From assembly GCA_963829055.1 (NCBI GenBank), contig CAWHHI010000017.1:128001-192000 (forward strand): DNA of 64,000 nt. Direction: 5' to 3'. Source of the stretch: an uncultured Gemmatimonadaceae bacterium (GTDB lineage: Bacteria; Gemmatimonadota; Gemmatimonadetes; Gemmatimonadales; Gemmatimonadaceae). This document shows, piece by piece, positions 1 through 63,562 of this stretch (the stretch's first letter is position 1; each line of letters begins with the position of its first letter). The translations under genes and the position numbers were made by a program. Under the pieces are notes generated by a model. The model did no database searches, had not been told where the DNA came from, and was given only the letters and a program-made list of their open reading frames with translations.

Positions 1-1143
1 GTGATCCTCGGCAAGACGAACCTGAGCGAGTGGGCGAACTTCCGATCGACTCACTCGACGAGTGGCTGGAGCGGACGGGGTGGGCAGACGAAGAACCCCT
101 ACGTCCTCGACCGCAACCCGTGTGGCTCGAGCTCAGGGACGGGCGCGTCGATCTCGGCCAACCTCGCCGCGGTAGGTGTCGGGACGGAGACGGACGGCTC
201 GATCGTGTGTCCGTCGTCGGCGAACGGCCTCGTGGGCATCAAGCCCACGGTAGGCCTCGTGAGCCGGTCCGGCATCATTCCCATCTCGCACAGTCAGGAC
301 ACGGCCGGTCCAATGGCCCGCACGGTCACGGACGCGGCGGCGTTGCTCGCCGTGCTGAGTGGTGTTGACCCACGCGATACCGCGACCGCTGCGTCGCGCG
401 GCAAGTCGACGTCGGACTACGCTCGCGTCCTGAATGCCGGCGCGCTCAAGGGCGCGCGCATCGGCGTCGCCCGCAGCTTCTTCGGCTTCAGCGACGCCGT
501 CGACCGCGTGATGAGTGAGGCCATCGCGGCCATGAAATCCGCCGGCGCCACGATCGTCGACCCCGCGAACATCGCCACCGCCGGCAAGTTCGATGATGCC
601 GAATCGGATGTGCTGCACTTCGAGTTCAAGACGGACCTCAATGCGTATCTCGCCGCGTTAGGCCCGAAGGCGCCTCACAAGGACCTGGCCTCGCTCATCG
701 CGTTCAACGAGCAGAACAAGGACCGCGAGATGCCGTACTTCGGCCAGGAGACGTTCATCAAGGCGCAGGCGAAGGGTCCGCTCACGAGTCCGGCGTACAA
801 GGCAGCCCGCGACAAGTGCATTCGCCTGTCACGCACCGAAGGCATTGACGCCACGCTCGCGAAGTATCGGCTGTCGGCGATCATCGCGCCCACGGGCGGA
901 CCGGCGTGGCCGACCGATCTCCTGAATGGCGATCACTTCACCGGCGGAAGCTCGACACCGTCAGCCGTGTCGGGGTACCCCAGCGTCACGGTGCCGGCGG
1001 GTTGGGTGCACGGCTTACCCGTCGGGCTCTCGTTCATCGGCGCGCAGTGGAGCGATGCCGCGCTCGTTGGTCTCGCGTACGCGTTCGAGCAGGCGACGAA
1101 GGTGCGGAAGCCGCCGCGCTTCCTGCCGAGCGTCAGGCTGTAG
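1..1143 (+). CDS. Amidase (amidase-signature family), 5' end outside window
   Basis: GKTNLSEWAN, CGSSSG, GTETDGSIVCP and GLPVGL motifs. Confidence 0.93.
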   Translation: MILGKTNLSEWANFRSTHSTSGWSGRGGQTKNPYVLDRNPCGSSSGTGASISANLAAVGVGTETDGSIVCPSSANGLVGIKPTVGLVSRSGIIPISHSQDTAGPMARTVTDAAALLAVLSGVDPRDTATAASRGKSTSDYARVLNAGALKGARIGVARSFFGFSDAVDRVMSEAIAAMKSAGATIVDPANIATAGKFDDAESDVLHFEFKTDLNAYLAALGPKAPHKDLASLIAFNEQNKDREMPYFGQETFIKAQAKGPLTSPAYKAARDKCIRLSRTEGIDATLAKYRLSAIIAPTGGPAWPTDLLNGDHFTGGSSTPSAVSGYPSVTVPAGWVHGLPVGLSFIGAQWSDAALVGLAYAFEQATKVRKPPRFLPSVRL

Positions 1144-1203
1144 ACCGCTGGCGCGTTAGGCCGCGGTTCGTTCGCGGACGCTGACGCGCTACTCGCTGAC
1201 GCG

Positions 1204-3373
1204 CTACTTGCGCTTGAGTCGACGCACCGCGTCGCGCAGCTCGGCGGTGCGCGCCGAGGCCATTTCCGCGAAGCATTCGGATTGCGCCTGCGCCCAGAAC
1301 GGCCCGCCGCCCGAGGGGGCCTGACGCGGGCACTCGCTCTCGCGGACGCCGAGCCACACGCGTTGCTCGACACGGATACGCTGCACCGTCGGCGGATCCG
1401 GCGCGCCTAACGGCGTGCCGGCCACGCGTCGCATCTCGTCCACGAGCGACTCGAACGTGCGATTGAGTGGCGCGTCGCCAATCTCGATGTACGCGGCGAG
1501 GCAGGCGCGCTGATCCGCCGTCGCGGCGATGCGACACCGAGGGATCGGGCCAGCGCCATCGCCGGACGACGCTCCTTTTTTCGGCCTCGGTGGTGGAATC
1601 TTGAACGGGTCCTCGATCGGTGCGCTGGCCCTGGCCGTAGAGTCAGGGTCCGGAGGCGTCGCGGCGGTAGCGGGTAGCGCTGCGTTGTTGGAGTCGGCGT
1701 TCGGCGCGGGCGGCTTTGCGGATGCTACCGCGCGATTGCTGTCGCCCCGCGTCTTGCGACGCGCGCGCGACGGCGCCTTCGCGGTCGGGGCCGCGCCTCT
1801 ACGCGTCTCACGCACGACGGGCTGCTTTCCTGGCGCCGGTGTGCTCTTGTCAGTCGCCGGCATCGTCACGGCGACGCTGCTCCCACCCGTGATGCCGCTC
1901 GCGCGTGGCGCGGGATTCTCCGGGGGAGGCGCGGCCATCAAGCCGCCGGACGACGGCGCAGCTGGCGGAGTAGCCGAGTCGCTGCACGATGCTCCCAGCG
2001 CTCGTCGTTACGCGACTCGATCCAGGCGCTCGCCCCGCACCGTCCCGTGCGCTGCCGCTGAGCATGATGAACAGCGACGCCGCAGCCAGGGTGAGCGGAA
2101 CGACGAGTCCGACGGCCTGCAGCATTCGCCTGCGGCGGGTCGTGAACGCGAACGGTGACTCCGCGTTAGGTGCCGCGGCATCGTCGCGCTCGACGACCTT
2201 CGTCATCGCCGGCAGCAGAATCCGGGTCGGCGCCTCGTCAGAGTCACGCGGCGCACTCCCGAGCGCGCTCGATTGAACTGGCGGGACCAGCATCATCGGT
2301 TCCGCGCGGGCTGTGACCGCCGCTGATTCGCGGTGCGTCTCCGGCGGAGGCGTTATCGGCGCCACTGCGCCCACCTCTGCCTCGCGATGCAGGCCGGCGT
2401 GCACGTCGGTGCTGGCTGTCGGAACGTGGCTCGATTGGTCGGGGTCGATCGCGGCCGCGCGGAACTGGACCGTGGGCTGGTCGTCCATCGGCGACGCGCC
2501 CGGCGGGTACGTCTGCGCCAACACCGGCGGCGGATTGTACGTCAGCTGATCGAGAAACGCATCGATCGTCTGCCACCGGCGTGTCTTGTCCTTGATCAGC
2601 GCGCCTTCGATCGCGAACAGGAGGTTGGCCGGCACGCGTGGCCGGAGCGACGTGATGCGCGGCAGATCCTCGTGCTTCTGCTTGTAGATGATGCCGTACA
2701 GACTCTCGCCCGCCCACGGCCGACGTCCGGTGAGCAACTCCCAGCCGAGGACGCCGAGGCTGTAGATGTCGCTCCGGCCGTCGACCACCTCGCCATCGAT
2801 CTGCTCGGGCGACATGTACTGCGGCGTGCCTAACGCTGCGCCGAGGAGCGTGATGCCGCCTTCGCCGTCGATCGACCGCGCGATCCCGAAGTCGGAAAGG
2901 AGGGCGCGGCCCCGCGTGACGTCGAGGAAGATGTTCTCGGGTTTGACGTCGCGATGCACGATGCCGCGTCGGTGCGCGTACGCCAGCGCGCTGGCCACAT
3001 CCCGCAGGATGGCCTCCGCATCCTCGGCGCCTAACGAGCCGTGTTCGCGGAGCCGGTCACGGACGGTGCCGCCCGGCACGTGCTCCATGATGATCGCGAC
3101 GGCGCGGTCGTCGATCTGCTCGATGGCTTCGGTGCGGACGATGTTTGCATGGTCCAGGCCGGCAACCGTTCGCGCCTCGCGCGCGAAGCGACGGATGGCG
3201 TCGGGGTCGTCGAGGTACCGTCCGCGGATGGCCTTGATGGCGACGAGCCGCCCGCTGACGCGCTTGCGGGCGAGGTAGACAGCCGCCACTCCCCCGTGCC
3301 CGAGCTCTCGGATGAGCTCGTACTCGCGTTCGAGGGCGCGGAGGTCGGACGGAAAGTCGGCGTCGGTTGCCAT
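1204..3373 (-). CDS. Ser/Thr protein kinase with TM helix, Pro-rich linker and C-terminal LprI/DUF1311-like domain; frameshift near 1985
   Basis: LGHGG, VAIK, HRDVKPEN, DFG, GTPQYMSPE in ORF 1850..3373; C...QRAC...EQRVWL..R...C...C pattern in ORF 1204..1941. Confidence 0.82.
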
Positions 3374-3420
3374 CGATTCGGGGAAGCTATCCGGGTGTGA
3401 TGCGGGTTGTGTGCCGAAGG

Positions 3421-3467
3421 CGCCGGAGGGCGGAGGGCGGAGGGCGGAGGGCGGGGGCGGGAGCCGG
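3421..3467 (+). repeat. Heptamer tandem array (GGAGGGC)n, left arm of four-helix-bundle element
   Basis: ggagggcggagggcggagggcggagggcgggggc read directly. Confidence 0.85.
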
Positions 3468-3986: not shown

Positions 3987-6208
3987 TAGGCCAGAGGCAA
4001 CCTCCTCACCCGCCTCCCCGTCGCCGCGAAAATCCCGTTCGCCACCGCCGGAGCGACCGGCGAGACCGGTGGCTCGCCCAACCCAGACGGCGGCTCCGCG
4101 CTGCGGACGAAATGCACCTCGATCACTGGCACCTCGCTCATACGTAACAGACGATAGTTGTTGAAGTTGCCCTGGTTCACGCGACCGCGATCGACCGTGA
4201 TCTCGCCGTACAGCGCCGCACTCAGCCCGTCGATCACGCCGCCCTGCACCTGCGCTTCGGCTCCACTCGCGTTGACCACCGTTCCGCAGTCCACCGCGGC
4301 CACGATCCGGTGCACCCGCGGCTTCCCAGCCGAGTCCACCGAGACCTCCGCCACGTGCGCGACGTAGCTCCCGAACGTGAAGTGCGCGGCGATGCCGCGT
4401 CCTCGACCACGCGGGAGCGGTGTGCCCCATCCGGACCGATCCGCGGCCAGTCGGAGGACGTTCGCGAGCCGACCCGTATCGAATGTGGGCCCGCCGTGGT
4501 CCGCGTACGGGAGGCGCCGGGGCGCGCCGAGCATCGCGAGTCGGAACGCGAGCGGGTCGCGACCGGCGAGATGCGCCAGCTCATCGATCGCGCTTTGCAC
4601 CACGAACGCGTTCGCCGAGTGGAGCGTCGCACGCCAGGCGCCGACCGGAATGACCGATGCCACGCGCGTGTACTCGAGCCGTACGTTAGGCAGCAGGCGC
4701 GCGGGAAAATCGTCCGGGTAGAGCTCCGACTTGTACGGGGTTGGGCCGGCCGGCGAACGCATAACGCGACGTGTTCGCGAGATGGTGCGCCCATGCGATG
4801 GGGGCGCCGGCAGCATCGAGCGCCGCGCGCACCCGGTGCACGCCCGCGGGGCGGTAGTAGTCGTGCTGGAGATCGTCCTCGCGCGTGCGGACCACCTTGA
4901 TCGGCGCGGCCATCGCCTTGGAGAGGTACGCCGCCTCCGCCGCATAGTCCGACATGAGTCGCCGCCCGAACCCTCCTCCGGCTCGTTCCATGTGCACCGT
5001 CACATTCGCTGGCGGAATGCCGACGACGCGCGCCGCGAGCGCCTGTGCATCACCAGGACTCTGCGCCGTTCCCCACAGCTCGACGCGATCACCGCGAACG
5101 TCCGCCGTGAAGTTCACCGGCTCCATGGGGACGTGCGCGATGAACGGAATCTCGTACACGACGTTCAGTGTCCGCGCCGCGACCGCGATGACCGCGTCGA
5201 CATCACCGTCATCGCGAATGCGTTCGCCCGGTCGTTCGAGCGCCGCATGGAAGCTGGCGACGAGCTCGGCCGACGTCGCGCCGACGATTCCAGGGTCGCT
5301 CCATGTCACCACGAGCGCCCGCCGCCCTTCGAACGCAGCCCACGTGTTATCGGCGACAACGGCAACGCCTTCACGCAGCTCGACGGGATTGTCACGCGGC
5401 GTTAGGCGCACGACGCGGCGGACACCCGGTACGGCGAGCGCCCGTGTGTCATCCACACTCACGAGGCGCGCCCCGAACGGCGCGTGCACGATACTGGCAA
5501 TGAGCATTCCCGGTAGCGAGACATCGATGCCGATAGCGCTGCGTCCCGCGTGCGATGGCCCGTGCGTCCACGTTGCGAACACGCGTCCCGACGAGACGGA
5601 AATCCTATCGCGCTTGAGCGGCACGTCGGACGGGACGCGCACGGTCGCGGCGTCAGCGGCGAGTGCGCCGTAGCCGAGTCGTCGGCCGGTCGGGCCATGA
5701 ATGACGGTGCCGTGTTCGGTGCGACACGCGGCCGGCTCGACGCCCCACCGCGCAGCCGCGGCCGCGACGAGCGCATAACGCGCGGCGGCGCCGGCGCGGC
5801 GGAGCGCCGACCAGTTCGAGCTCACGCCGGTGCTGCCACCGGTGAACTGGTCACCGAATCGCGAGTCGAACGCAGCCTGGATGACGCGCACTGTGTCCCA
5901 CGGCGACGTCGAGCTCTTCGGCGACGATCATGGGAAGCGCGGTCTTGGTTCCGGTGCCGATCTCGGGATTCTTGGCGGCAATGATGACGACGCCGTCGGG
6001 CTCGATCTCGATGAACGCACCGATCCGTGCGGCCGAGGCAGACCGGGTCGCCCGGTTTGGTCGGCGGAAGCCACACGGTGACGGCGACCCCGCCGGCGGC
6101 GGTGGCACCAAGGCGGATGAAGCTGCGGCGATCGAGTGACGGTGGCACTGACGCGGGTTCCACGAAGCGTCTCGCGAGAGGATTCGAGACGTTATGCGAT
6201 GCGCTCAC
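3986..6208 (-). CDS. Xanthine dehydrogenase-family molybdopterin subunit (IorB-like), Tat signal; several frameshifts
   Basis: [55 protein letters not shown] across four ORF pieces. Confidence 0.88.
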
Positions 6209-6437: not shown

Positions 6438-9008
6438 CTACTGCTTCCTGATCCGTCGCGTCGGTGTCGCAGTCATGGGATCGTCCGGCCAGTGATGCTT
6501 GGGGTAGCGTCCTCGCAGCTCCTTCCGAACGTCGAAGTAGGACGTGCGCCAGAACCCAGCCAGGTCACGCGTCACCTGCACCGGCCGCTGTGCCGGCGAC
6601 AGCAGGTGGACCGTCAGCGGCACCGCCCCGCGCGCAATGCGCGGCGTATCCGCCAGGCCGAACATCTCCTGCAGTCGCACCGCGAGCACCGGGGCCGAGG
6701 CGTCACCGTAGTCGATCGCGATCCGACTCCCGCTCGGAACCGTGATGTGGGTCGGCGCGAGATCGTCGAGCAGCGCGCGCCGGTCCCACGGCAGTTGCGA
6801 CAGCAGCGCACCCGCGAGATCGATGCGACCGAGATCATCGAGCGACCGCGCGCCGCGTACGTGCGGCGCCAGCCACTCGCCTAACGTCTCGAGCAGCGCC
6901 GCATCCGACACGTCCGGCCACGTCGCGTCCACGCCATGCATGAACGCCAGGCGCTCACGCAGCGATCGCGCGCCACCACTCCACGGCAGCGCCTCGATCC
7001 CCTCCCGGCGCACACCTTCGAGCAGCGCCGCCGTGGTTGCCTCAGGGTCAGCATCCCGCAATGGACGCTCGACGAGCACGATGGCACCCAGCCGCTCGCG
7101 CTCACGCGCGACCACCGCGCGCTCACGCGCGTCCCACATGGTCTCGCGCTCGCGTGTGACCTGGTCGGCGAAGTGGTGTTCGATGTCCTCGAGCTCGAGC
7201 GCGGCGGCGAGAAAGATCCGGCTCTCCGGTCGTCGCCCGTCGAGCTCGACGGCCACGATGAATGGCGCGTCGGACAGCGACTGCGCGCCCTGCAGCACGG
7301 CCCCGTTTCCGTTGCGCAGCAGAAACCGCCCGGACCTCGGCGCACGGAGTTGGCCGATGCGATCCGGATACGCGAACGCGAGCAGTAGTCCGACCGACGC
7401 ATCGCCGTCGCGCTGGCCAGGTGCACGTGCGACGACGGCGTTGCCTAACGCTGAGCGTAGCCGGTCGGATTCCGTCCGGATGCGCCGAACGGCGTCGCCA
7501 TCGACCGAGTGACCCGGTGACGACACGGCGCGCGATCCGCGAATCAACGGCAGCCTCGTCTCGACGTCGGCGTCCGGCGCCGAACCGGCATCGACGCGCA
7601 GCGGATCGCGCTCGCTGAGCAACGCCGCGAGGTCACAGGCGAGACCGATGCTGCCTGACGCCCGTGCCTGGAGCACCATGTGCGCGAGGCGGGGGTGCAT
7701 CGGCAGCTCCGCCATGCGCTGCCCGTGCGGCGTGATCCGCGGCGCCGCGCTCGATGCACTCGACCCGCGATCAGTCGCCGGCGGCGCGGCGATGGCACCC
7801 AGCTCTTCCAGGAGCTCGCGTGCCTGAGCGTACGACGCCGCGGGTGGTTGATCGAGCCATCGCAACCCCGACGGATCACTGATTCCCGCAGCCGCCAGCT
7901 CGAGCGCAACGGGCGCCAGATCGGCCTCGAGGATCTCGGGCGCGGTGTGCGCGACGAGATGGTGTTGCTCGTGCTCCGCCCAGAGCCGATAGCACACGCC
8001 GGGCGCGACGCGTCCGGCCCGCCCTCGCCTCTGATCTGCCGACGCCTGTGACACGCGCACCGTCTCGAGCCGCGTCATGCCCGTGCGCGGCGAGAACCGC
8101 GGTACGCGGGACACTCCGCTGTCGATCACCACCCGCACGCCCTCGATGGTCAGACTCGTTTCAGCGATGGACGTCGCGAGCACGACCTTGCGCTCCCCAG
8201 GAGCGACTCGGAGCGATCGCGGCGTCCTGCGCTTCGCCCGACAGGCTGCCATGCAGCGGGTAGACGTGCGTGCGCGGCGGCAGCGCTCCGCTCACGAGCA
8301 GGTCGTGAGCGCGTCGAATCTCGCCGGCGCCAGGGAGGAAGACGAGTACGTCACCGTCATCCGCGCCGAGCGCACGCCTAACGACTGAGGCGACAGCGTC
8401 CTCGAGGCGAACGTCGGGCCGGCGCTCGATGTAACGCGTCTCGACCGGGAAGGCGCGACCCTCGCTCGTGATGACCGGCGCGTCACCCAGCAGTCCGCGC
8501 GACGCGAGCGCCATCGAGCGTCGCCGACATGACGAGAACGCGCAGCTCGGGCCGGAGCACATCGCGCGTCTCGAGTGTGAGCGCGAGCGCGAGATCGGCG
8601 TCGAGGCTCCGCTCGTGGAACTCGTCGAAGATGACGAGGCCCACGCCGTCGAGCGACGAGTCGCGCTGGAGCATGCGCGTGAGGATGCCTTCGGTGACGA
8701 CCTCGATGCGCGTGCTTCGTCCGACACGCGACTCTCCGCGCACGCGAAATCCGACGGTGTCCCCTACCCGCTCGCCGCGCACGGACGCCATGCGCCGAGC
8801 GGCCGCCCGCGTCGCGAGCCGCCGCGGCTCGAGCATGAGGATGCGCTGGGAGCCGAGCCAGGGCGCGCCAAGCAGGGCGAGCGGCACGCCGGTGGTCTTC
8901 CCCGCCCCCGGCGGCGCCTGCAGCACCGCACTCGTGCCGTCGCCTAACGCCGCGGCCAGGGCGGGGATGACGGCGTCGATCGGCAGCGTGACGGACGGAG
9001 GACGGGCA
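6438..9008 (-). CDS. hrpB: ATP-dependent helicase HrpB; frameshifts, start approximate
   Basis: LPID, QAPPGAGKTT, EPRRLA, DEFHERS, MSATLD, FLPG, ATSIAETSLTIEG, QRRGRAGR, RGRYPKHHWPDDP. Confidence 0.93.
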
Positions 9009-10155: not shown

Positions 10156-11266
10156 ATGCGCATCGTGCGACGAGCCGCGCAATGCACGCTCGCGCTCTCG
10201 GGCCTCGTCGCTCTCGCATGCACCGGGCGAGGCGACGATGGCGGCGTCATTCGCATCGGCATCGCCGCCGACCTCAAGCGCCCGAACATGCAGACGGTGC
10301 TGCGAGGCGTCGAGCTGGCGATCGAGCGGCTGAATGCCGAGGGCAACGGTCGACGCTTCGAGATCGCGAAGCCTCCGACGACGGCGACCGGCGCCGTCGA
10401 GATCGCGGCCGCCCTGCGCGATGACCCGCGCGTCGTCGCGGTCGTCGGACCGGCCGACAGCCGGAGCAGCCGCGAATCGGCGCCGATCTTCGCCGACGAA
10501 GACGGCGGCGGTCGACGAGCGCTGGCAGCGGTATCGCCGACGTCGACGAGCATGTCGCTCACCGGCCTGAGTCCGTGGCTGTTCCGCGTCTGCCCGAGCG
10601 ACGCCGCCTCGAGCCGAGCCGCTGCGCGCTACGTGCTCGACTCGTTAGGCTTCCGCCGCGCGACGATCATGTACCGCAACGACTCCTACGGTCGCGGCTG
10701 GAGCACCGCGTTCACGCAGGCGTACAGCGCCGGCGGCGGCGAAGTGCTGGAGCGCAATCCGCACCTCGCCGACATGAACGAGTGGCGCGCGTATGCCGGC
10801 ATCGTGAAGCTCACGAAGCCCAACATCGTCCTGTTCCCCGGATCGCCGGCGGACCTCGCGGGCCTCGTCCGCTCGCTCCGCGCCATCGGCGCCGACACGC
10901 CCGTACTCGGCGGCGACGCGGTCTCCGAGCTCGAGGCGCAGGCCACGGAGTTCGCCGGGCGTTCGCTACATCGCGTTCTTCCAGGCGTCGCGCGTGCAGT
11001 CGAGCGAAGCGAAGGCGTTCGTCTCCGCGTTCGCGCGGAAGTACGGCGTCCCGCCGGAGCAGCGCTCGGCGCTCGCGTACGATGCCACCATGCTCATCGG
11101 CCACGCGGTGCTCGAGGGCGGCGCGACTCGGCCCCGTGTGCGTGAGTACCTCGCGTCCGTCGGCAACTCGCGACCGCCGGTATCCGGCGTGACCGGCCCG
11201 ATCTCGTTCGATCAGCAACACGACGTCGTCGACAAGCCGGTCGTGATCGCGACGGTGGGCAAGTGA
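10156..11266 (+). CDS. Branched-chain amino acid (LivJ-type) substrate-binding lipoprotein; frameshift near 10962
   Basis: Lipobox LAC, IRIG, FRVCPSD, NDSYGRG, ALAYDA, GVTGPISFD. Confidence 0.85.
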
Positions 11267-23897: not shown

Positions 23898-24011
23898 AGA
23901 GCCTCCAATGGTCGATTGCTCGTTGCAGCCACTAGTAAAGCAAAGGGCACGCCGCCGCGGCGTGCCCTGACTCGATGCTTCAAGCTGCCTAACTATGTGT
24001 TTGCCTAACGC

Positions 24012-27890: not shown

Positions 27891-27898
27891 GTTAGGAC

Positions 27899-30068: not shown

Positions 30069-30083
30069 GTGAGTGCAAGCGGC

Positions 30084-31414: not shown

Positions 31415-31424
31415 GCGCTTCGCC

Positions 31425-34620: not shown

Positions 34621-34642
34621 GCGCCGAGTCGAGGAATCGTTG

Positions 34643-34782: not shown

Positions 34783-35060
34783 ACAGCTCACGCTCGCACT
34801 AGTAGATGTACACGCGCGTGCCGACGGGCATCATGTAGGAAAGCATTCACCGTGCCGCTGTTTCCGGGAGGAGCGATTGCCAGAATAGCGAGAAAATGGT
34901 TGAGTTTGGGAGCCGCCGGAATCGGTCATGCCGCCTAACGCAGCAGCGTCGCGCGGCCCCAACCCCAATCTGAAACGATGCGACACGGCCTCGACATTTT
35001 CACCAAAATGTCGAGGCCGCCTAACGCGCCGTTCGGTCGGCAGAAATCAGCATCGGAAAG

Positions 35061-39727: not shown

Positions 39728-40655
39728 CTGATCGGGAATCGGGGAATCGGGGAACGGGGAACCGGGCGCGAGCGCAATCGCGGCGCGAGTTCTCAGCAGC
39801 CGGGCGTCGCCGCCGCTGGGCGCGGTTGCCGTTTCGATTCCCGATTCCCGATTCCCCATTCCCGACGCGTTCCCCGTTCCCGGTTCCCGGTCCGCCGCTT
39901 GCCGACAGGCAGCGGCCCGTTGGTGCTACGAGAAAATCCCGATCCGTGAATTCGCGCAGGCCGCGAAGCGCATCGGACTCGCCGGTATCGACCTGCTGCA
40001 GCCCGCGGAGTGGGATGTCGTTCGCGATCAGGGGCTCGCGTGCTCGATGGGCTACCCGACCGACCGCCGCGACTTCCTCACCGTCGGGTTCAACGACCGC
40101 GCGAACCACGCGATGTTGCTGAAGGAGCTCGAGCGCACCATTCCGCTCGCGGCCGAACACAAGGTGCCTAACGTCATCGCGATGTTCGGCAATCGTGGCG
40201 GACGCACGGACGCGGCCGCGATCGCGGCCTCAGTCGAAGGGCTCTCGAAGATCAAGCCGCTGGCCGAGCAGCACTCGGTCACCGTGTGCGTCGAGCTCCT
40301 GAACAGCAAGGTCGACCACCGCGACTACCAGGGCGACCACACGGCCTTCGGCGTCGAGGTCATGAAGGGCGTCGCATCACCGCGCGTGAAGCTGCTCTAC
40401 GACATCTACCACATGCAGATCATGGAAGGCGACGTGATCCGCACGATCCGCGACAACATCGCCTACATCGGCCACTTCCACACCGGCGGCGTCCCGGGCC
40501 GTCACGAGCTCGATGGTCGCCAGGAGCTCAACTGGCGCGCGATCGCGATCGCCATCGCCGCGACGGACTATGCGGGCTTCGTCGCCCACGAGTTCATGCC
40601 CACCGGCGATCCGCTGACGTCGCTCAAGGCGGCGTATGAGGTGTTCGCGGTTTGA
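39724..40655 (+). CDS. Hydroxypyruvate isomerase-family protein with Tat-like leader; frameshifted 5' part
   Basis: SRREF; ELLNSKVDH.DY, LLYDIYHMQIMEGD, HTGGVPGRHEL, HEF. Confidence 0.85.
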
Positions 40656-49671: not shown

Positions 49672-49676
49672 TGCGC

Positions 49677-51552
49677 CTAACGACTCACCGGATCGTCGAA
49701 CCGCCACTGCGCCTTGTAGTCCCGCTTCAACGGCAGATTCTCGAGCCGCGCGCGCACCATCTCCACCGGCATGCGCCCACCCTGCAGAATCGCGTCGTGA
49801 AACTGACGATTCGTCATGCGACCCGACTCGACCAACTCCTTGTGCAGCGCGCGGAACTGCAGCCCGCCGATCATGTACGCCACCTGATACAGCGGCGGGT
49901 ACGATCCATTGAACGACCGGCGCACCTCCGCCTCCGCGTTCGCGCGCTCGTGACCCACACGTTCCACGAGAAAATCGACCGCCTCCTGCGGCGTCATCGT
50001 GCCGAGGTGGAAGCGGAGCGAGAAGATGATCCGCGCCGTGCGATGCATGCGCCAGAACAACATGCCCACGCGATCCTCGGGCGTACGCGCGAAGCCCTGG
50101 TCCCAGAGCAGCATCTCCCAGTAGAGCGACCAGCCCTCCATCCAGAACGGCGTGCTGAAGACCTGCCGGTGCGTCATGTAGCGAGCGTTCATGAAGCCCT
50201 GCAGGTGATGCCCCGGAATCAGCTCGTGATGCACCGTCGCGCGTGAGAAGTGCGGGTTGTTCCCGCGCATGCTCATCATCTTCTCCTCGTGCGTCATCCC
50301 GTCGGTCGGATACGACACGAGAATCGTCTCACCGCCGAGGAAGAACGGCGCAACGCGTTGACGCTCCGGCGTCATCATCTCCATCCGCCAGATCTCGCTC
50401 GCGAGCGGCGGCACCGTGACGAGATCGCGCCTGGTGACGAACTCCTCCGCCTCGCGCGCGAGGTCACGGATGAGATCCGGCTGCTTCCCCGGCTCGACGT
50501 ACGTGTTCTTCACCTTCTCGACCGCCTTCCGCCAATCGTCGCCGAACCCCATCTCGCGCGACGCCTTCTTCATCTCGACCTCGCACCACGCGTACTCGCG
50601 CTCCGCGATCGCGATGAGGCGCTCCGGTGTGTACGGCATCATCTCGTGCGCGAGGTCAGCCTCGAGTCCCGCTGCGCCAATCGGATCACCGATGATTGGA
50701 TCGGTATCGCCCTGCTTGATGCCCACAACCTTCTCGCGGAGCATGGCTGAGTAGCCCTTGAGGGCCTCGTCCGACTTCTTGAACGGATCCTCGGCCCACC
50801 AGCTGAAGAGTGGATCGTACCCCGAGTAGTAGCGGTACCACTGGCCCAGTGTCGTGCGCAGCTCGTCCACGAAGCCGGCCGTGCGGAAGCCGACGAACCG
50901 CACGGTCCGAAGCGAATCGCGCACGTTCGGCGTTGGTGGTATCGACCTTCGTTGCCGCGACCTTCTCGACAGCCTTGCGCACGCTATCGACCTGTTTCGC
51001 GAGCAGGGCAAGCGTTCGCCCGGCGTCCTGCTGGTTGACGGGCTTGAGCTCACGACGCGCCTCCATGAGATCGAAGATCGTCCCCGCGAACGGCGTGTAC
51101 GACTGCATCTCGGCCAGCTGCTGTCGGCTGCGCTTCAGCTGATACTGCTGATATTCCAGCTCGTGGCGCAGGAGCACGTAGTCGACCCGTCCCTCCTGGG
51201 AGAGCTTGTCGAAGGCGACCTCACCGAGCCGCGCGGTCCATTGCGTCGTGAACGCTTCGAGTCGCTTCGCGCGTGCCGGCGAATAGTCGACGCCGTATCG
51301 CCTGCCTAACGCCTCCTGGTCCGCGTCATACCGCGCGACGACTTGGGCGAGCTCGCTCCGCGGCGTCGCCGCGTACGGAGCCAGCGCGGGAACGGCGGAC
51401 GTTTCGACGGACGGTCGAGGCGCTGCCGCCTTTTTTCCGCTCTGGCCCGATAGCGCGATGGGCGTAACGAACAGGATCGCGAGCACGACAAGCGCGCGGG
51501 CGCAGACGAACGTGCCTGACCGACCCCGAAGCGCCGCTGGCAAGGACACCAT
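49677..51552 (-). CDS. DUF885 family metallopeptidase-like protein; frameshift near 50920
   Basis: HHELIPGHHLQ, EGWSLYWE, AYMIG..Q. Confidence 0.88.
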
Positions 51553-53124: not shown

Positions 53125-53146
53125 TGGTCTGTCGTTAGGCCGACGC

Positions 53147-54167
53147 TCAGCGCGCCTTGAGCGCGAAGGTGATTGGCAGTCGGTCCCGCACGACCGTCAC
53201 GCTCATCGTCTCCGTCTGATTGACGCGGAGGAAGCGCAACGCACCGTCCTCCGAGAGGATGGACTTGCCGTCGATGTGCGAGATGGTGTCGCCGACGCGA
53301 ATGCCTGCGCGCTCGGCCGGACCTCCAGGCGTGAGCGCGACGATGGGAGGGTAGCCGTCGAACTTGTAGTACTCCGTACCGTCGGGCGTACGCGCGCGTG
53401 TGCACGCTGGCTGACAGCCGACCGCGAAACCGAAGCGTCGCCCGCCCGCGGACAGGTTCACCTCGACTCTCGGGCGCGCTGAATTGTGGCACGCCATCGA
53501 TGATGAACAGCGGCTCGTTCTTCGGTGCGGCTTGGGGCACCGTCTTTGGCCGGATCGTGCTGGCGCGCTTCGTCGTGATCAGGATGACTCCGTTGACGGC
53601 TCGCTCACCGTAGAGCGACCTGGCGGCAGGTCCCTTGAGCACCTCGATGGATTCGATCGAGGCGGAGTCGACCTGATTCAGATCGCTCACGACCCCGCCA
53701 TCCACGATCACGACCGGCGAGTTCGTAGGTGCCGACGACTGCTGCGGAACGGTCGAGGCGTCGCACCCGGGAGTCGTTGCGTCCACCTGCACGCGCGAGT
53801 TCCCGCGGCGTACCGTCACCGTCGCCTTCCCCGCCCGCGGGTACGTGAACTGATCGGCACCAGCCGCAGTCATGATCGGTTCGCCATTCACCGCCTCGAT
53901 CACATCGCCCGGCTGGAACGCGCTGGACTTCGCCGCATCGAGCACGATGGGCTCGGCCTGGAAGATCGTATGGAGCCGTGCTCTGTCACCACGCCTGACG
54001 GAGCAGCTCGCGCACTGGTACGACGTGATACCGAACGCGGCCCCCGGACCCGAGCACGATGCGGCTTCCTGAGCGGCGAGTGGAGGGACGCTGGCGATCA
54101 ACGCGACGAGCATCGCCGAGTAGTGCGTGCGACGTTCGCGAGATGTGCGACGATGTGCGTTAGGCAT
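53147..54167 (-). CDS. Secreted PDZ - TonB-plug-like - PDZ protein; frameshift near 53470
   Basis: GDVIEAVNG; IESIEVLKG....LYG....GVILITTK; PAERAGIRVGD.I..IDG. Confidence 0.72.
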
Positions 54168-54169
54168 GG

Positions 54170-54694
54170 TCAGAACCAGAGGACGCGTTGTGGTGGAGTC
54201 GACGTGGCGGGCACCCCACTCGTCCGCAGCGCCGCGGCAAGACCAGGCGTTAGGCCGCCATCGAGATTGTTGCGTGCGACCGCCTGCGCGGCACCGAGCA
54301 GGACGCGACTCGCGACCTCGATCGCTGTGGAGTCCGTTTTCGCGACCGCCCCAGCGTACCCGTTGGCCGCTCGCACGTAGGCAGACCCGGCTCGTTGCAT
54401 CAGCAGGATGCGATCGGACGTCGAGAGGTCGGTGCGCTCGAGACGCGCCTCGAGCGAGTTGCGTGTCGCCAGGTGCGCGCCGATTGCTCCACCGGCCACG
54501 AATAGCACGACGGCGGCGGCAAGCTGCAGCATCCACGATCGCCCTCGTCGCCGCGCCGCGAAGAAGCCTTCGCTTTCGAGCGAGGACACGAGCCGGTCCA
54601 GCTCACGCGGGGCGGGCAGACTCTCGCGAGGCAGCTCGGCGAACAGCTGGTCGAGCCGATCATCACGGCGCGGGAGATCGAGATCATCGGACAT
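54170..54694 (-). CDS. Probable single-TM anti-sigma factor
   Basis: Overlaps ECF sigma 3' end; LAAAVVLFVAGG TM after basic stretch. Confidence 0.65.
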   Translation of the reverse strand: MSDDLDLPRRDDRLDQLFAELPRESLPAPRELDRLVSSLESEGFFAARRRGRSWMLQLAAAVVLFVAGGAIGAHLATRNSLEARLERTDLSTSDRILLMQRAGSAYVRAANGYAGAVAKTDSTAIEVASRVLLGAAQAVARNNLDGGLTPGLAAALRTSGVPATSTPPQRVLWF

Positions 54695-55613: not shown

Positions 55614-56568
55614 AGGGCCAGTCGCTGAACACCACCTCGCCCGGTCCCGCGAACGCCGCATAGAGATCATCATCGAACGTCCGGTACCGCGTCCCGAACG
55701 TCTGCTCGAAGTGCGTTCCCCAATCCGGACGCGATCCATCGACGTCCGTGAACCCATACTCGTGCGCCAGAGTCCACGACGCGAAGACCTTCCCCGATTT
55801 CGATTTCACATCAGGGTCGGCGGCAAGTGCCGCCACCCCGCGTCCCACATAGAGCGGTGACTCCGACGCGATGAAGTTCGAATCCTTCTTCGCGCCCTCG
55901 CGCCACGTCTCCGCCGTCACGCCGAAGTGCTCGAGCATGAACTCCGAGCGCAGAAAACCTGGCGTGACCGCGACCGCCGCGACGTCGTGCTTGCGGAGCT
56001 CACGCGCTTGAATGAACGCGAGCCTGATGACCGTCGACTTCACGAGGTCGTAGAAGATGTTGCCGCGATACCCGTAGAAATCGCCATCCGTGATCTCCAC
56101 GATCAGGCCCGGTCCGCGAGCGTCGCGCTCGAACATGAGCGGCGCCGCGTGGTGGCTCGTCAGAATGTGAGACCAGATGGCCTGGTCGATCATCTTGCGG
56201 CCGTTCTCGATATTCACCTGCCAGAACGTCTTGCCGAATTCCGTCAGGGCGTCGCCGCCCCACACGTCGTTGACGAGCACGTCGAGCCGACCCTGCTCGT
56301 GCCTAACGCGCTCGACGAGGGCGCGCACCTCGGCATCGACTGTGTGGTCGCACCGCACCGCCACACCCGTGCCGCCCGCGGCTGTCACCAGCTCGGCGGT
56401 CTCGTCAATGGTCTCGGGCCGACCAGCACCGCTCGCGAGATTCCCGCGCACCGAGCGCCCGGTGCAGTACACCGTCGCTCCCTGTTCGCCGAGCGCGACG
56501 GCGATGCCGCGTCCAGCCCCACGCGTCGCACCGGCGACGAGCGCCACTCGGCCGTCCAGTGAACCCAC
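55612..56568 (-). CDS. SDR family oxidoreductase
   Basis: GATRGAGRGIA, LVNDVWGG, YDLVK, PGFLRSE. Confidence 0.9.
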   Translation of the reverse strand: MGSLDGRVALVAGATRGAGRGIAVALGEQGATVYCTGRSVRGNLASGAGRPETIDETAELVTAAGGTGVAVRCDHTVDAEVRALVERVRHEQGRLDVLVNDVWGGDALTEFGKTFWQVNIENGRKMIDQAIWSHILTSHHAAPLMFERDARGPGLIVEITDGDFYGYRGNIFYDLVKSTVIRLAFIQARELRKHDVAAVAVTPGFLRSEFMLEHFGVTAETWREGAKKDSNFIASESPLYVGRGVAALAADPDVKSKSGKVFASWTLAHEYGFTDVDGSRPDWGTHFEQTFGTRYRTFDDDLYAAFAGPGEVVFSDWP

Positions 56569-57446: not shown

Positions 57447-57479
57447 GAGGCGCCCGCGGCCTAACGCCGCGGGCGCCTC
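57447..57479. terminator. 14-bp GC hairpin with CTAAC loop
   Basis: gaggcgcccgcggc-ctaac-gccgcgggcgcctc; no U-tract. Confidence 0.5.
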
Positions 57480-57627: not shown

Positions 57628-59322
57628 ATGCAGAGTCAGTCTCGTTCGACCACGTATGACGTGTGCATTGTCGGTTCGGGCGCCGGCGGGGGCATGGCGG
57701 CCCACGCCCTCACGAAGGCCGGCGCTCGGGTCGCGCTCCTCGAGGCCGGGCAGATGTGGGATCCGATCAAGGACGGCGCCATGCTCAAGTGGCCGTACGA
57801 CTCGCCACGTCGCGGTGCGTCCACGCGGGAAAAGCCGTTCGGCGAATACGACGGCTGCATCGGTGGCTGGCAGATCGACGGCGAGCCGTACACCACCGCG
57901 CCAGGCTCGAAGTTCGACTGGTGGCGCGCTCGCATGCTCGGCGGCCGTACGAACCACTGGGGCCGAATCTCCCTGCGATTCGGACCCTACGACTTTGCCC
58001 GCAAGAGCCGCGACGGACTCGGTGATGACTGGCCGATCACGTACGACGACGTGAAGCCGTGGTACGACGAGGTCGACAAGCTCATCGGGATCTTCGGCAG
58101 CGTCGAGGGACTGCCTAACGAACCGGATGGCATCTTCCATCCGCCGCCGGTGCCTCGCTGCTACGAGCGCCTCGCGAGCAACGCCGCGAAGAAGCTCGGC
58201 CTGACCGTCGTGCCGTCGCGGCTGTCGATCATCACGAAGCCGCACAATGGCCGCGCGCCGTGTCATTACTGCGGACAGTGCAACCGCGGGTGCATGACGA
58301 ACTCCAACTTCTCATCGACCGGCGTGCTCATTCCGCCCGCGCAGAAGACGGGGCGTCTGACGCTGATCACCAACGCCATGGCGCGCGAAGTCACGGTCGG
58401 CAAGGACGGCCTCGCGAACGGCGTCAGCTACATCGACAAGAAGACTGGACGAGATGCACACGTCTCGGCGCGCATCGTCGTACTCGCCGCGAGTGCGTGC
58501 GAGACGGCGCGTCTGCTGCTCAACTCGAAGTCGTCGACGTTTCCAAACGGCCTCGCGAACTCGAGCGGCACGGTGGGCAAGTATCTCACCGACACCACAG
58601 GATCCGACGTCTCGGGATTCATTCCGAAAATGATGGAGATGCCGCCGCATAACGAGGACGGCGTGGGCGGTATGCACATCTACATGCCGTGGTGGCTCGA
58701 CAATTCAAAGCTCGACTTCCCGCGCGGCTACCACATCGAGACATGGGGCGGCCGCGGCATGCCGGGCTCCGGCTTCATGGGCGGCATCCACCGCTACCCG
58801 AATGGCGGCGGCTACGGCGCATCGCTCAAGGATGACTACCGCCGCTATTACGGCTCGACGATCGGCTTCAGCGGCCGTGGCGAGATGATCCCTAACGATG
58901 ATTCATACTGCGAGATCGACCCGAACGTCGTCGACCAGTACGGCATCCCCGTGTTGCGCTTCCACTGGAAGTGGACGGACGCCGAATACAATCAGGTCAA
59001 GCACATGCAGGAGACGTTCAGGGCGATCATCGCCGAGATGGGCGGTGAGGTGTTCTCACCGATGCCGACGAAGGAGCAGGGCTACGGCATCGCGAACGGT
59101 GGCGCGATCATCCACGAGCTCGGCGGCGCGCGTATGGGCAAGGATCCGGCGACGTCGGTGGTGAATGCGAACTGTCAGGCGCACGACGTGAAGAATCTGT
59201 TCGTGACGGATGGCTCACCGTTCGTGAGTCAGGCAGACAAGAATCCGACGTGGACGATTCTCGCGTTGTCGATGCGCACGAGTGATTTCATCGCCTCCCA
59301 ACGAAAGGCTGGTGCCCTGTGA
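57628..59322 (+). CDS. GMC family flavoprotein oxidoreductase (glycoside 3-dehydrogenase-like)
   Basis: GSGAGG, LGGRTNHWGR, C.YCGQC.RGC, HELGGARMG, NPTWT. Confidence 0.92.
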   Translation: MQSQSRSTTYDVCIVGSGAGGGMAAHALTKAGARVALLEAGQMWDPIKDGAMLKWPYDSPRRGASTREKPFGEYDGCIGGWQIDGEPYTTAPGSKFDWWRARMLGGRTNHWGRISLRFGPYDFARKSRDGLGDDWPITYDDVKPWYDEVDKLIGIFGSVEGLPNEPDGIFHPPPVPRCYERLASNAAKKLGLTVVPSRLSIITKPHNGRAPCHYCGQCNRGCMTNSNFSSTGVLIPPAQKTGRLTLITNAMAREVTVGKDGLANGVSYIDKKTGRDAHVSARIVVLAASACETARLLLNSKSSTFPNGLANSSGTVGKYLTDTTGSDVSGFIPKMMEMPPHNEDGVGGMHIYMPWWLDNSKLDFPRGYHIETWGGRGMPGSGFMGGIHRYPNGGGYGASLKDDYRRYYGSTIGFSGRGEMIPNDDSYCEIDPNVVDQYGIPVLRFHWKWTDAEYNQVKHMQETFRAIIAEMGGEVFSPMPTKEQGYGIANGGAIIHELGGARMGKDPATSVVNANCQAHDVKNLFVTDGSPFVSQADKNPTWTILALSMRTSDFIASQRKAGAL

Positions 59323-60744: not shown

Positions 60745-60768
60745 GGGGTCAGACTCGAGTCTGACCCC
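60745..60768. repeat. REP-like palindrome family A
   Basis: Exact 24-bp copy preceded by ctacgtcatt. Confidence 0.9.
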
Positions 60769-60875: not shown

Positions 60876-62156
60876 ATGGCGCGAGAGCTGGAGCTGACCG
60901 AGAAGCTGAACATCCTCATGTCTCTCGCCGCCGAGGATCGCGAGGGGCCCCCGCAGGCAGCGCCGACGTTGCTGCCCCCGCGGCTCCGTCATGCAAGCGA
61001 CGCCGGCGCACTGCGGCCGCTCAACATCCGTGTGCTGCGTGGCGCCGGCGGGCCAGTGAAGCTGCTGCGCATCCTGATGACCAACGCCTGCGCGCTCAAC
61101 TGCCACTACTGCCCCATGCGCCGCGACCGCGCCATGCGCCGCACGCTTCTCAAGCCCGAGGAGCTCGTGCGGATCTTCCTCGGCGCGCTCCGCCGCGGTT
61201 GGTGCGAGGGGTTGTTCATCACCACCGGCATCCCCGCGCGCCCGGAGAAAGTCACCGACGATCTGATCGCCGTCCTCGAGCTGCTGCGCGTTAGGCACCG
61301 CTTCGCCGGCTACATCCACGTGAAGCTCGTCCCCGGCGCTCAGGAGGCGCAGATCCAGCGGATCACGGCGCTCGCGACGCGCGTATCCGTGAACCTCGAA
61401 GCCGCGTGCGGCGACACGCTGGAGCGCATTGCGCCCGAGAAGCAGCTCGCGAGGACGCTCGTGACGCTCGAACGCGCGCGCCGCGTGGTCGTCGACAACA
61501 CACAGGAGGAACGCGCCGGTCGCCCGCGCGACGCACGACGGCCCGGCGGCATCGCGGGTATGACCATGCAGTTCGTGGTCGGTGCCACGCCGGACTCAGA
61601 CAGAGCGATCATGGATCGTGTGACGAGCCTCTATGCCGGCGGCGGGATCCATCACGCGCACTTCAGCGCATTCCGGCCCATCCGCGATACGCCGATGGAA
61701 GGCGCGCCGGCGACCCCGGCGCTGCGCGAACATCGCCTGTATCAGGCGGATTGGCTCGTGCGCGACTACGGCTTCGCGCCTAACGAGGTCGTGTACGAGG
61801 ACACCGGCAACCTGCCGCTCGCGGTGGACCCCAAGGCGGCATGGGCGCTGGCGCACCCGGAACACTTTCCGGTGGACGTGAGCACCGGCACCTACGAGCA
61901 GCTGGTGCGCGTCCCGGGCATCGGCCCACGATCGGCACGTCGTCTCGTGAACGAGCGGCGCACCGCGGTCATCAACGGGCTGGCGGACCTTCGTCGCTTT
62001 GGCATGGTGACCACCCGCGCGGCGGGATTCCTGACGCTGCGCGGCCGGCGATTGCAAACGGTGCGCTGGACGCAGCAGCTCGGCCTCTGGCGCCCGGAAG
62101 ACGAGGTGGGCGCGCGACACGACGTCTACGAGTTCAGCCCCGGCACCTTTCGTTAG
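60876..62156 (+). CDS. Putative DNA modification/repair radical SAM protein with HhH domain (TIGR03916-like)
   Basis: LMTNACALNCHYC, GYIH.K, REHRLYQADWL.R.YGF, DPK.AWAL, RVPGIG. Confidence 0.9.
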   Translation: MARELELTEKLNILMSLAAEDREGPPQAAPTLLPPRLRHASDAGALRPLNIRVLRGAGGPVKLLRILMTNACALNCHYCPMRRDRAMRRTLLKPEELVRIFLGALRRGWCEGLFITTGIPARPEKVTDDLIAVLELLRVRHRFAGYIHVKLVPGAQEAQIQRITALATRVSVNLEAACGDTLERIAPEKQLARTLVTLERARRVVVDNTQEERAGRPRDARRPGGIAGMTMQFVVGATPDSDRAIMDRVTSLYAGGGIHHAHFSAFRPIRDTPMEGAPATPALREHRLYQADWLVRDYGFAPNEVVYEDTGNLPLAVDPKAAWALAHPEHFPVDVSTGTYEQLVRVPGIGPRSARRLVNERRTAVINGLADLRRFGMVTTRAAGFLTLRGRRLQTVRWTQQLGLWRPEDEVGARHDVYEFSPGTFR

Positions 62157-62227
62157 GCAGGACTACGGAACGCTGAACGCTCTGAACGCTCAGAACACGC
62201 AGAAGGCAGGAGCGGCGGTGAAATAGC

Positions 62228-62350
62228 GCTGTCATCCCGAGCGCCAGCGAGGGACCTCGTGTGATGTCACTCGTGGCCAGGCCGGCCACGAGGACTTCAC
62301 ACAAGTTCCCTCGTCCCCGCTGCCGGTTCCCGACTCCTCGGGATGACAGC
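62228..62350. repeat. Palindromic repeat family B between convergent genes
   Basis: gctgtcatcccgag...ctcgggatgacagc. Confidence 0.8.
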
Positions 62351-62356
62351 ACACGA

Positions 62357-63562
62357 CTATTCAGTTGCCACCTGCGCCGCCGGCAGCGTCGCAAAGAAGT
62401 CCTCGCGAAAGCGCGGCATGTAGGCCGCCAGAAGGTCGTCGACGCGCGCTGCCGCCGACGACGCCACGATCAGCCCGGCGTGGTGGCGCTTGGACAGGCG
62501 CCAGACGATTTCCGGATCACCGAACGCCGAGAGGTCAGGCCATTCCTGGCGCGCCAGCGATATCAGCAGCCCCGCGTGGTCCGAGCGGCCCACGGGAAGT
62601 GCGTATTCGTCACCGTGCACGTCCGCGACCTCGACCCGCGCCCACTCGCGCCACAGGTTGAGCCCCGTCGCCGCCTCCACCAGCGCGACGATGTTCGCGC
62701 CGCCGACCCGCGCCGCGGTCTCGAGAAAGTAGTAGCGACCATCCTCCCTGCCCCGGATGAACTCCGTGTGCAGCGCGCCGCGCGTCATGCCTAACGCCGT
62801 CACGACCTGCTCGTTCCCGGTCACGAGCGCCGCCGATTCCTCCGACGCACGATCGAGCGTGCGCGTGCAGAACACGCCGCCGCCGTGATACACGTCGAAC
62901 GGCGGCTGGAAGTACCCGTGCGCCTCGGCGAATACCACCTTCCCACCCCACGCGATCGCGTCGACGTGAAAGACATCGCCGGGCACGTATCGCTCGAGCA
63001 GGTGAAACGACTGGCGATCGCCGAGAACGTCGAGCAGCGGCCAGAGCTCCTCGGCGCGCTCGATCTTCTTGATGCCGATGGCCGACGCCGAGAGACGCGG
63101 CTTGAGCAGCCACGGCGGCGGCACGCGCTCCATGAACGCGCGTATCCGATCGTGGTTGAAGATCGGCACGAACTCGGGCACGAGCACGCCGCGCGCCTCC
63201 GCCTGCATGCGCATCGCCAGCTTGTCACGAAAGAAGCGGACGGTGCTCTCGCCCATCCCTGGCACACGCATGTGCTCGCGAAGCGTCGACGCCATCTCCA
63301 GATCGAACTCGTCCAGCGGGACGATCCGGTCGATCGACTCCGTGCGCGCCAGCCAGCTGACGCCGTTGATCATGTGATCCCGATCCGTGAGATCCGGAAT
63401 CAGGAGGAGCTCGTCAATGCTGTCGCGGGGCCACTCCAGGTCGCGAAGTGCCTCGCGCGTGACGAGCAGCACGCGCGCACCCAGCCGGTGGCACTCACGG
63501 ATGAAGTCGTGGCCCTTGAAGTAGCTGGCCAGGCAGAGGATCGTGACGGGGCGTCGAGGCAT
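62357..63562 (-). CDS. ATP-grasp domain protein
   Basis: FRDKLAMR, LKPR..ASAIGIKK, HTEFI, FLETAARVGG. Confidence 0.88.
   Translation of the reverse strand: MPRRPVTILCLASYFKGHDFIRECHRLGARVLLVTREALRDLEWPRDSIDELLLIPDLTDRDHMINGVSWLARTESIDRIVPLDEFDLEMASTLREHMRVPGMGESTVRFFRDKLAMRMQAEARGVLVPEFVPIFNHDRIRAFMERVPPPWLLKPRLSASAIGIKKIERAEELWPLLDVLGDRQSFHLLERYVPGDVFHVDAIAWGGKVVFAEAHGYFQPPFDVYHGGGVFCTRTLDRASEESAALVTGNEQVVTALGMTRGALHTEFIRGREDGRYYFLETAARVGGANIVALVEAATGLNLWREWARVEVADVHGDEYALPVGRSDHAGLLISLARQEWPDLSAFGDPEIVWRLSKRHHAGLIVASSAAARVDDLLAAYMPRFREDFFATLPAAQVATE

Follow-up and report, generated by a model that had tools for sequence, protein, structure and literature searches.

What keeps one eight-letter word recurring, about once per kilobase and on both strands, in a bacterial genome? 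The question is raised by a 64,000-nt stretch of DNA (the window) from an uncultured Gemmatimonadaceae bacterium, in which the octamer CGTTAGGC (hereafter the word; core hexamer, GTTAGG) is iterated from end to end. The window corresponds to G000:C17:128001-192000, where G000 is the genome of that bacterium (7,784,024 bases, or 7.78 Mb, in 20 contigs; GC content, 66-67%; 86% complete), and all window coordinates are counted from the window's own first letter. Our tentative answer, in which our confidence falls a little short of even, is that the word may be an uptake-sequence-like tag of self DNA, whose reader we only infer.

Exact copies of the word numbered 48 in the window, 17 on the + strand and 31 on the − strand, with the first at 656 and the last at 62789-62796, and the core occurred 61 times (25 + and 36 −); a preliminary description of this DNA had counted about 48 octamers and about 61 cores by hand, with the same strand numbers, and the recount reproduced them exactly. 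In 100 dinucleotide-preserving shuffles of the window, the octamer averaged 1.13 copies (maximum, 5) and the core 5.81, which gave an octamer excess of ~42-fold. The earlier figure of roughly 20-fold was therefore right as to enrichment and too low in size, and the GC content, which had been put at about 69%, ranged from 0.645 to 0.694 across the window rather than being 0.69 throughout. The copies had also been placed mostly inside genes, and 38 of the 48 sites did fall within gene calls, 6 of these overlapping a stop codon. The calls were made with our own crude caller, which yielded 6,623 calls and 70% of the genome as coding; apparent frameshifts are numerous in this assembly. Genome-wide, G000 contained 5,004 words (2,547 + and 2,457 −), equivalent to 0.64 per kb or about one per 1.5 kb, and CGTTAGGC was the top over-represented 8-mer relative to base composition (16.9-fold).

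According to the gene calls of G000, the word was read as xCG-TTA-GGC in 1,255 cases, as G-CCT-AAC-G in 854, as GC-CTA-ACG in 568, and as C-GTT-AGG-C in 406, while 198 copies lay on TAA stops (GCC-TAA-CG), 169 on TAG stops, and 1,554 outside gene calls. Words accounted for 47.5% of all TTA codons, 16% of CTA, 11% of CCT, and 7% of AGG, as well as for 210 of 832 TAA stops (25%) and 178 of 1,731 TAG stops. Peptide contexts that can be spelled silently as the word were so spelled in 22.6% of cases for [SPTA]LG, 56.8% for xPN[VADEG], 19.9% for [SCRG]LT, and 11.0% for xVR[LPHQR]. When synonymous codons were shuffled within genes (n = 20), 47.7 + 91.5 copies (~139; maxima, 59 and 108) were obtained, versus the 1,666 + 1,424 (3,090) observed, and this control is conservative because the codon pool already includes the rare codons of the word. 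The enrichment thus did not vanish under codon-preserving shuffling, the outcome against which the preliminary description had staked its claim. Since words occur in all four non-stop frames and on stops, in excess over the codon shuffles, the driving force is on DNA and not on protein or codon choice. These results indicated that the force maintaining the word acts at the DNA level.

The 5,004 copies lay in 5,001 distinct 58-nt contexts, and the flanks carried at most 0.13 bit of information per position, giving a flat logo. The word is therefore a stand-alone octamer and not part of a repeat element, and a dispersed repeat of the repetitive extragenic palindromic (REP) or miniature inverted-repeat transposable element type was rejected, as the copies have no common flanks. 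The core GTTAGG is strict and the ends of the word are looser: one-letter variants at outer positions were frequent in G000, namely TGTTAGGC (435), CGTTAGGT (827), and CGTTAGGG (428), together with the further one-letter variants CGTTATGC (583) and CGTCAGGC (1,763, ~3.2-fold above word-poor relatives), and G-to-A variants at word positions 2, 6, and 7 numbered 13 to 24 each. A second frequent repeat of this genome, consisting of GCTCGGAATGACA-like 10-mers found ~700 times (e.g., TCGGAATGAC, 719 copies), is probably a REP-like element.

Orientation of the word was random with respect to its neighbors, 2,589 neighboring pairs having the same orientation and the two opposite orders numbering 1,197 and 1,198, and the sense strand of genes was slightly favored (54% of words). 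These figures bear on a polar chromosome signal of the type of Chi, read by RecBCD or AddAB, or of the FtsK-orienting polar sequences (KOPS), a reading that we regard as highly improbable. Chi, KOPS, and architecture-imparting sequences resemble the word in octamer length and kilobase-scale density, the per-orientation density of ~1 per 3 kb being, as far as we know, of the order of that of Chi; they differ in being polar with respect to the replication strand, whereas the G-rich strand of G000 carried 52.1% of the words (2,275 of 4,368, in 68 intervals of 100 kb). Strand excess correlated weakly with GC skew (r = 0.34), and an AddAB-like gene pair is present on contig C15. However, across the switch of skew and gene strand on contig C16 the + share went from 60% on one side to 47% on the other, which is no strong flip, and a KOPS or architecture-imparting sequence was rejected accordingly. 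Perfect strand polarity in other genera was likewise rejected, as stretches fetched from four other word-rich genomes had both strands (+/− counts of 31/31, 18/10, 48/75, and 18/30). As to the readers, RecC was not found in G000, and AddB-like proteins occurred in 9 of 201 family genomes, word-poor genera included, so RecBCD/AddAB is not conserved in the family. The preliminary description, which had set Chi and KOPS aside on grounds of polarity, was right on this point.

Spacing, by contrast with the gaps expected from an exponential distribution, was far from random: 215 gaps were shorter than 200 nt versus 611 expected, and gaps of 500 to 2,000 nt were in excess. Word copies repel one another at short range and are more evenly placed than chance. 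Word density was doubled less than 100 nt upstream and downstream of stop codons, for words of either orientation, and one report describes a gene-terminus bias for the uptake sequences of Pasteurellaceae (PMC2346458).

The preliminary description had suggested that absence of the motif from other sequencing data of the organism could expose a basecalling artefact. Among 24 public runs, compared as contigs of patchy coverage, record 1 of run X1 had 0 differences over window 28150-28303, the word at 28281 included, and record 26 of run X4 had 1 difference over window 27876-28338, outside the word. The word was also found in many other assemblies, including some whose names point to short-read assemblers, and in a cultured strain with a finished genome, Gemmatirosa kalamazoonensis KBS708, where three 50-kb samples from two megaplasmids (including NZ_CP007129) contained 30, 29, and 20 words and the reversed control word 0. 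A basecalling or assembly artefact was rejected on the strength of these independent public-run contigs and the finished genome.

We then compared the window with related loci. Window words were conserved in place at 6 of 7 sites in L001, 6 of 8 in L002, 5 of 6 in L003, and 4 of 4 in L065 (21 of 25, or 84%, in these four same-genus loci), with a nucleotide identity of 77-78% and 17% of all octamers identical; in L004, a more distant same-genus locus, 1 of 4 was conserved. Six other genomes of the genus of G000 carried the word at equal density. In a second word-rich clade (L023, L038, L043, L049, and L057), 0 of 1 alignable window sites was common, the position of the window word at 28281 being occupied by ordinary CTS-Leu codons, and the members had their own common sites instead. 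Words were therefore built independently in each clade, by several substitutions each.

The distribution of the word was examined in 201 Gemmatimonadaceae genomes (tallies include four unpublished genomes, G021, G047, G048, and G146, from which no named example is taken); the nearest relatives of G000 are uncultured members of the family from soil metagenomes. Counts ranged from a handful (<40) to 7,821, the highest being those of G201 (7,821 in 6.1 Mb) and G022 (6,360 in 5.1 Mb), and word-poor genomes often lay about ten-fold below the reversed control word. G000 had 643 words per Mb versus 4.0 per Mb in 37 word-poor related loci, a ~160-fold difference. In a GH3 protein tree (quick maximum-likelihood, single gene, 63 species), the rich species fell into two clades: one was rich in 6 of 6 members, a 13-row clade had 9 rich, 3 intermediate, and 1 without the word, and clades of 21 and 20 rows had none. 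Thus, the word is clade-restricted within Gemmatimonadaceae and is not a property of the whole lineage. All word-rich clades carried the identical octamer, word-poor relatives showed no alternative hyper-abundant word in the 10-100 kb sampled per species, and no one-letter dialect was seen in 63 related loci. Searches of the literature on the octamer, on uptake and over-represented sequences, and on integron attC sites returned, among the papers listed, nothing on this word in Gemmatimonadota. Short stretches with a word every 500-650 nt, nearly all on one strand, were seen in word-poor genomes of the same order (G015:C95:188-23656, with 31 + and 1 − words; G015:C80; G015:C43; and G013:C3); possible sources are a repetitive gene, an island, or contaminating DNA of a word-rich organism.

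Three word-free stretches stood out in G000, C6:5440-55037 (49.6 kb), C11:0-46789 (46.8 kb), and C6:591808-623330 (31.5 kb); all are at contig ends, and 0.01 gaps longer than 20 kb are expected by chance. In total, 128 kb of foreign-looking DNA in this genome had 0 words. The first two stretches encode second copies of FtsK, AroC, DAHP synthase, PepA, and FolD, 46-59% identical to the resident copies, and judging from these genes the stretches are probably chimeric metagenome joins or large foreign insertions. Chimeric or foreign alike, they serve as an internal control, and so the word marks the lineage's own DNA. Intervals of atypical GC content in G000 also had a lower word density. Among mid-sized word-free gaps (10-16 kb), one contains a plasmid-type replication initiator and is probably a mobile element, and the others contain housekeeping genes and fit chance. 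C19:1-11556 (GC, 0.565), with SerS and PurA fragments, may be another chimeric or foreign stretch. Several genes of G000 are split over two to three frames, namely, AroC of the foreign stretch (C6:21580-22798), a secretin (C8:360651-361147), the AddAB-like pair (C15:9162-16049), and a methyltransferase-like gene taken up below (C8:73494-76758); these seem to be assembly indel errors or else pseudogenes.

Phages were sampled by scanning viral contigs for two words 200-230 nt apart, which gave at least 120 stretches, 80 of which were fetched; the sampling is biased, because each match has two words by construction, and 51 of the 80 had the two seeded words only. Three phage fragments of host-like GC content nevertheless carried 0.5-1.5 words per kb: L182 had 12 words in 7.8 kb (shuffle mean, 0.27) with genes for virion proteins and an endolysin, L165 had 18 words in 20 kb, 16 of them on the coding strand, with tail-fibre-like proteins and an endolysin, and L153 had 7 words in 13.6 kb with a terminase and a major head protein. 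Words in phages are consistent with an uptake model, and also with any other in which intracellular DNA gains from carrying the word. Two other viral-labelled contigs, L157 and L199 (GC, 0.42 and 0.30), had 14 and 9 words, respectively, nearly all of them on a single strand, and probably represent tandem repeats or cassette arrays from unrelated organisms.

Neisseriaceae mark their DNA with DNA uptake sequences (DUS) and Pasteurellaceae with uptake signal sequences (USS), and we compared the word with both. To our knowledge, uptake-sequence-like words are established in only these two families of Proteobacteria; ComP is the receptor for the Neisseria sequence. Like DUS and USS, the word is a short exact sequence at a copy number and density (~0.5-1 per kb) typical of such sequences, occurs in both orientations and in several gene frames, is evenly spaced with a gene-end bias, and is conserved among close relatives and restricted to a lineage. 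It is likewise scarce in acquired DNA and accumulates in host phages. One study found that USS build up in temperate phages of Pasteurellaceae and that large phages, probably lytic, show no such accumulation (PMC6776037). If the word is such a tag, cellular machinery would read it on double-stranded DNA in either orientation, the most likely reader being a DNA uptake (natural transformation) apparatus that prefers word-bearing DNA, as with DUS and USS. Uptake biased in this way, with homologous replacement after it, would gradually fix substitutions that create words where the protein tolerates them and would retain existing words.

Several points weigh against this self-tag reading. The word differs from DUS and USS in occurring in Gemmatimonadota, a phylum not known to us to be naturally competent, and in being all-or-none by clade within one family. 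At 8 bp it is shorter than DUS (10-12 bp) or USS (9 bp plus flanks), and it has no flank preference. DUS and USS families have dialects, whereas none was seen here in the 10-100 kb sampled per species, all rich clades having the same octamer. The repulsion over ~200 bp is shorter than expected if one tag per imported fragment sufficed, and the coding-strand bias of the phage words (L165, 16:2; L182, 8:4; L153, 4:3), compared with 54% in the host, is not explained by uptake. The gene calls themselves are crude, with 70% of a frameshift-prone assembly called as coding. No candidate receptor was identified, and no search aimed at pilins or receptors was made; ComEC was present in 184 of 201 family genomes, whether rich or poor, and neither it nor DprA, both being close to universal, separates the two groups. 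The only genera consistently without ComEC (g23, g49, and g68) were word-poor, an association too weak to count, and the DprA, weak ComEA-like match (35 bits), and secretins of G000 are generic. Finally, the plain model does not predict that the word should be identical to the R box of integron attC sites, as detailed below. The uptake signal that the preliminary description had listed as one option would thus fit the sequence-level properties, phage accumulation included, and would sit poorly with the absence of dialects, the short length, and the attC identity.

Much of the same evidence could be accommodated by an orientation-independent site for an intracellular protein, either a nucleoid organizer, also among the options of the preliminary description, or a label of self that would keep a host nuclease or defence system from attacking the DNA, with each copy useful to resident DNA, phages included; we judge this unlikely, if well worth keeping in view. 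Even spacing with repulsion below ~200 bp, strong conservation of words in place, phage fragments at host-like or higher density, and absence from foreign DNA would all be expected of such a site, and the sequence tests made here fit it and the uptake reading alike. A possible reader for it is a gene pair found family-wide, an Eco57I/Type IIG-like adenine methyltransferase (DrmMI-like; ~1,080 aa) adjoining an SNF2 helicase, at C8:73494-78414 in G000. However, this sole candidate pair is present in 187 of 201 genomes and shows no divergence between rich and poor ones, no binding protein was identified, and the nucleoid and segregation sites that we know of are far fewer or degenerate. Near-universal presence of the Type IIG-like gene is in itself unusual for a defence-type gene.

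The integron link mentioned above rests on spelling. The core site consensus of integrons is GTTRRRY and the inverse core RYYYAAC; the word contains both an attC core (GTTAGGC) and an inverse core (GCCTAAC), identical in spelling, plus one further base, and a random octamer contains GTTRRRY on either strand in ~0.4% of cases by a rough estimate. G000 has an IntI gene at C20:208041-208958, scoring 265.7 bits against a cut-off of 265 (most IntI of the family score ~400 or more). Within 10 kb of it, 10 of 11 octamers were in one orientation, and five attC-like sites beside it end in ...CGTTAGGC, two of the five folding as hairpins. The integron spans C20:200710-208958, with attC-like sites that lie 3' of intI and share its orientation. 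At C20:119251-119513, two homologous 90-nt attC-like hairpins, 82 nt apart, have the word at both ends; they form an intergenic cluster far from any integrase, i.e., a small attC cluster without integrase. Of the 17 words in the genome of word-poor G064, 6 lay no more than 20 kb from IntI, and among them was a GCCTAACG...CGTTAGGC pair; in word-poor G008 such a pair lay 17 kb from IntI. From the G000 array, the C20 hairpins, and the G064 and G008 pairs, it follows that the word is the R box of Gemmatimonadaceae integron attC sites, with the octamer forming both R-box arms, a match that the preliminary description had missed. No attC model of Rfam matched the G000 integron region. In word-poor G163, a cassette array more than 60 kb long adjoins IntI (G163:C1:1250182-1313779) and has attC sites with the common palindrome AGGGCCCT, which numbered 75 sites in that genome versus 13-18 in four other relatives; as a second hyper-abundant word AGGGCCCT was rejected, being confined to the array.

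Given this identity, it is conceivable that the integron system itself reads the word, the integrase or a relative using the copies as secondary recombination or decoy sites, or uptake specificity and cassette core having co-evolved; we think this distinctly unlikely. Copies in G000 are single, unpaired, in ordinary genes, and far from the integrase, unlike attC and attI cores, and inverted word pairs at attC distance were not in excess (25 pairs, compared with 21 of the reverse order and 58 of like orientation). Core and inverse core 50-150 nt apart in a foldable pairing were found at the IntI array and C20:119251-119513 only. Word richness did not depend on an integrase either: IntI was present in 127 of 201 family genomes, rich and poor alike (by hand tally, ~40 of the 56 rich genomes and ~87 of the 145 poor ones), and had no match in rich G061 (97% complete) and G119 (95% complete). 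According to a preprint, insertion by the integrase into genomes requires only GWT (10.1101/2022.09.11.507474). No comparable word enrichment is known to us in other integron-rich bacteria. A combined scheme, in which cassette traffic and DNA import would be coupled by a common eight-letter code, seems to us a little less doubtful, though still rather unlikely; here either a word-reading receptor would preferentially import cassettes, which carry two words each, and the integron would capture them, or a reader derived from the integrase would act chromosome-wide.

A bias of mutation or repair, such as one linked to a sequence-specific methyltransferase, could also produce a word without function of its own, as proposed for words of the HIP1 type. 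HIP1 (GCGATCGC), of cyanobacteria, is like the present word a hyper-abundant, lineage-specific octamer that overrides codon usage, and it is linked to methyltransferases. It is palindromic, whereas the word is asymmetric, and the methyltransferase families PF00145, PF01555, and PF02384 (C5, N4/N6-beta, and N6-gamma) had no match in G000 (86% complete); a HIP1-like palindrome was rejected on both counts, and a Vsr-type route is left without a partner. One methyltransferase-like gene, the Type IIG-like enzyme described above, is of the type that acts on asymmetric sites, has an intact NPPW motif, and is conserved in the family, and any resident DNA, phage fragments included, has the word, as a bias would entail. 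However, the enzyme is found equally in word-poor genomes, and its specificity region has not diverged: 20 orthologues (13 from rich and 7 from poor genomes) all have NPPW and diverge evenly, with 1 of 1,379 columns separating the groups. Creating a word often needs at least 2 substitutions, e.g., CTS-Leu to TTA at window 28281, and ~160-fold enrichment is far above the effects of repair bias known to us. Even spacing and the 84% in-place conservation speak for selection or drive at each site and not for a diffuse bias, which we accordingly hold to be improbable. The option of a methyltransferase-maintained motif, raised in the preliminary description, is weakened by the same findings. Presence of IntI, ComEC, AddB-like protein, or the Type IIG-like methyltransferase did not track word richness in the 201 genomes; no candidate gene tested accounts for which clades are rich.

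In the window, the commonest reading was xCG-TTA-GGC, in which TTA is a rare Leu codon. It was found inside genes on the + strand at 656..663, 10643..10650, 20674..20681, 28281..28288, and 39223..39230 and on the − strand at 2828..2835, 3029..3036, 6879..6886, 7443..7450, 22442..22449, 31690..31697, 42040..42047, 42718..42725, 48422..48429, and 62789..62796. The word at 28281 lies in a GH3 gene, was conserved in 5 of 5 same-genus loci, and is the one seen in contigs of X1 and X4; that at 22442 was conserved in L065 and replaced in L002 by the one-letter variant ACCTAACG; and that at 31690 varied in its outer letter (G>A at 31690) among the contigs listed for 4 public runs. The frame GC-CTA-ACG, with the rare Leu codon CTA, was used at 5400..5407, 46302..46309, and 54248..54255 (+) and at 26109..26116, 26922..26929, and 34034..34041 (−), the site at 26109 being conserved in L001, L002, and L065 and that at 26922 in L001, L002, L003, and L065. 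Pro-Asn (G-CCT-AAC-G) was encoded at 37838..37845 (+) and at 16730..16737, 17327..17334, 40166..40173, 58113..58120, and 61778..61785 (−), and C-GTT-AGG-C, with the rare Arg codon AGG, was read at 61289..61296 (+) and at 8376..8383, 44789..44796, 45698..45705, and 56301..56308 (−).

Stop codons were contained in the remaining words that touch genes. The gene 4686-5891, on the minus strand, has its TAA stop (GCC-TAA-CG) within the word at 4684..4691 (+), and TAG stops lie within the words at 30082..30089 (−), 31409..31416 (+; gene 31067-31414), 34615..34622 (+; gene 33850-34620; conserved in L001-L003), 49675..49682 (−; gene 49677-50903), and 62151..62158 (+; gene 60876-62156). Outside gene calls lay the words at 1154..1161, 53133..53140, and 54158..54165 on the + strand and at 1405..1412, 8942..8949, 24003..24010, 34933..34940, 35019..35026, 51304..51311, and 57459..57466 on the − strand. 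Despite the genome-wide depletion of short gaps, two pairs of words in the same orientation, at window 34933-35026 and 54158-54255, are 86 and 90 nt apart, the former pair being outside gene calls.

As a host marker, the word names the hosts of phage contigs, and it brings to light stretches of chimeric or foreign origin in metagenome-assembled genomes, as at three contig ends here. The cultured carrier Gemmatirosa kalamazoonensis KBS708 makes the question accessible to experiment. If the self-tag reading is true, this would be a third case of an uptake word, in a distant and little-studied soil phylum, switched on or off clade by clade within one family and spelled as an integron core; it would offer a way to test how bacteria label their own DNA and might show how cassettes move between cells.

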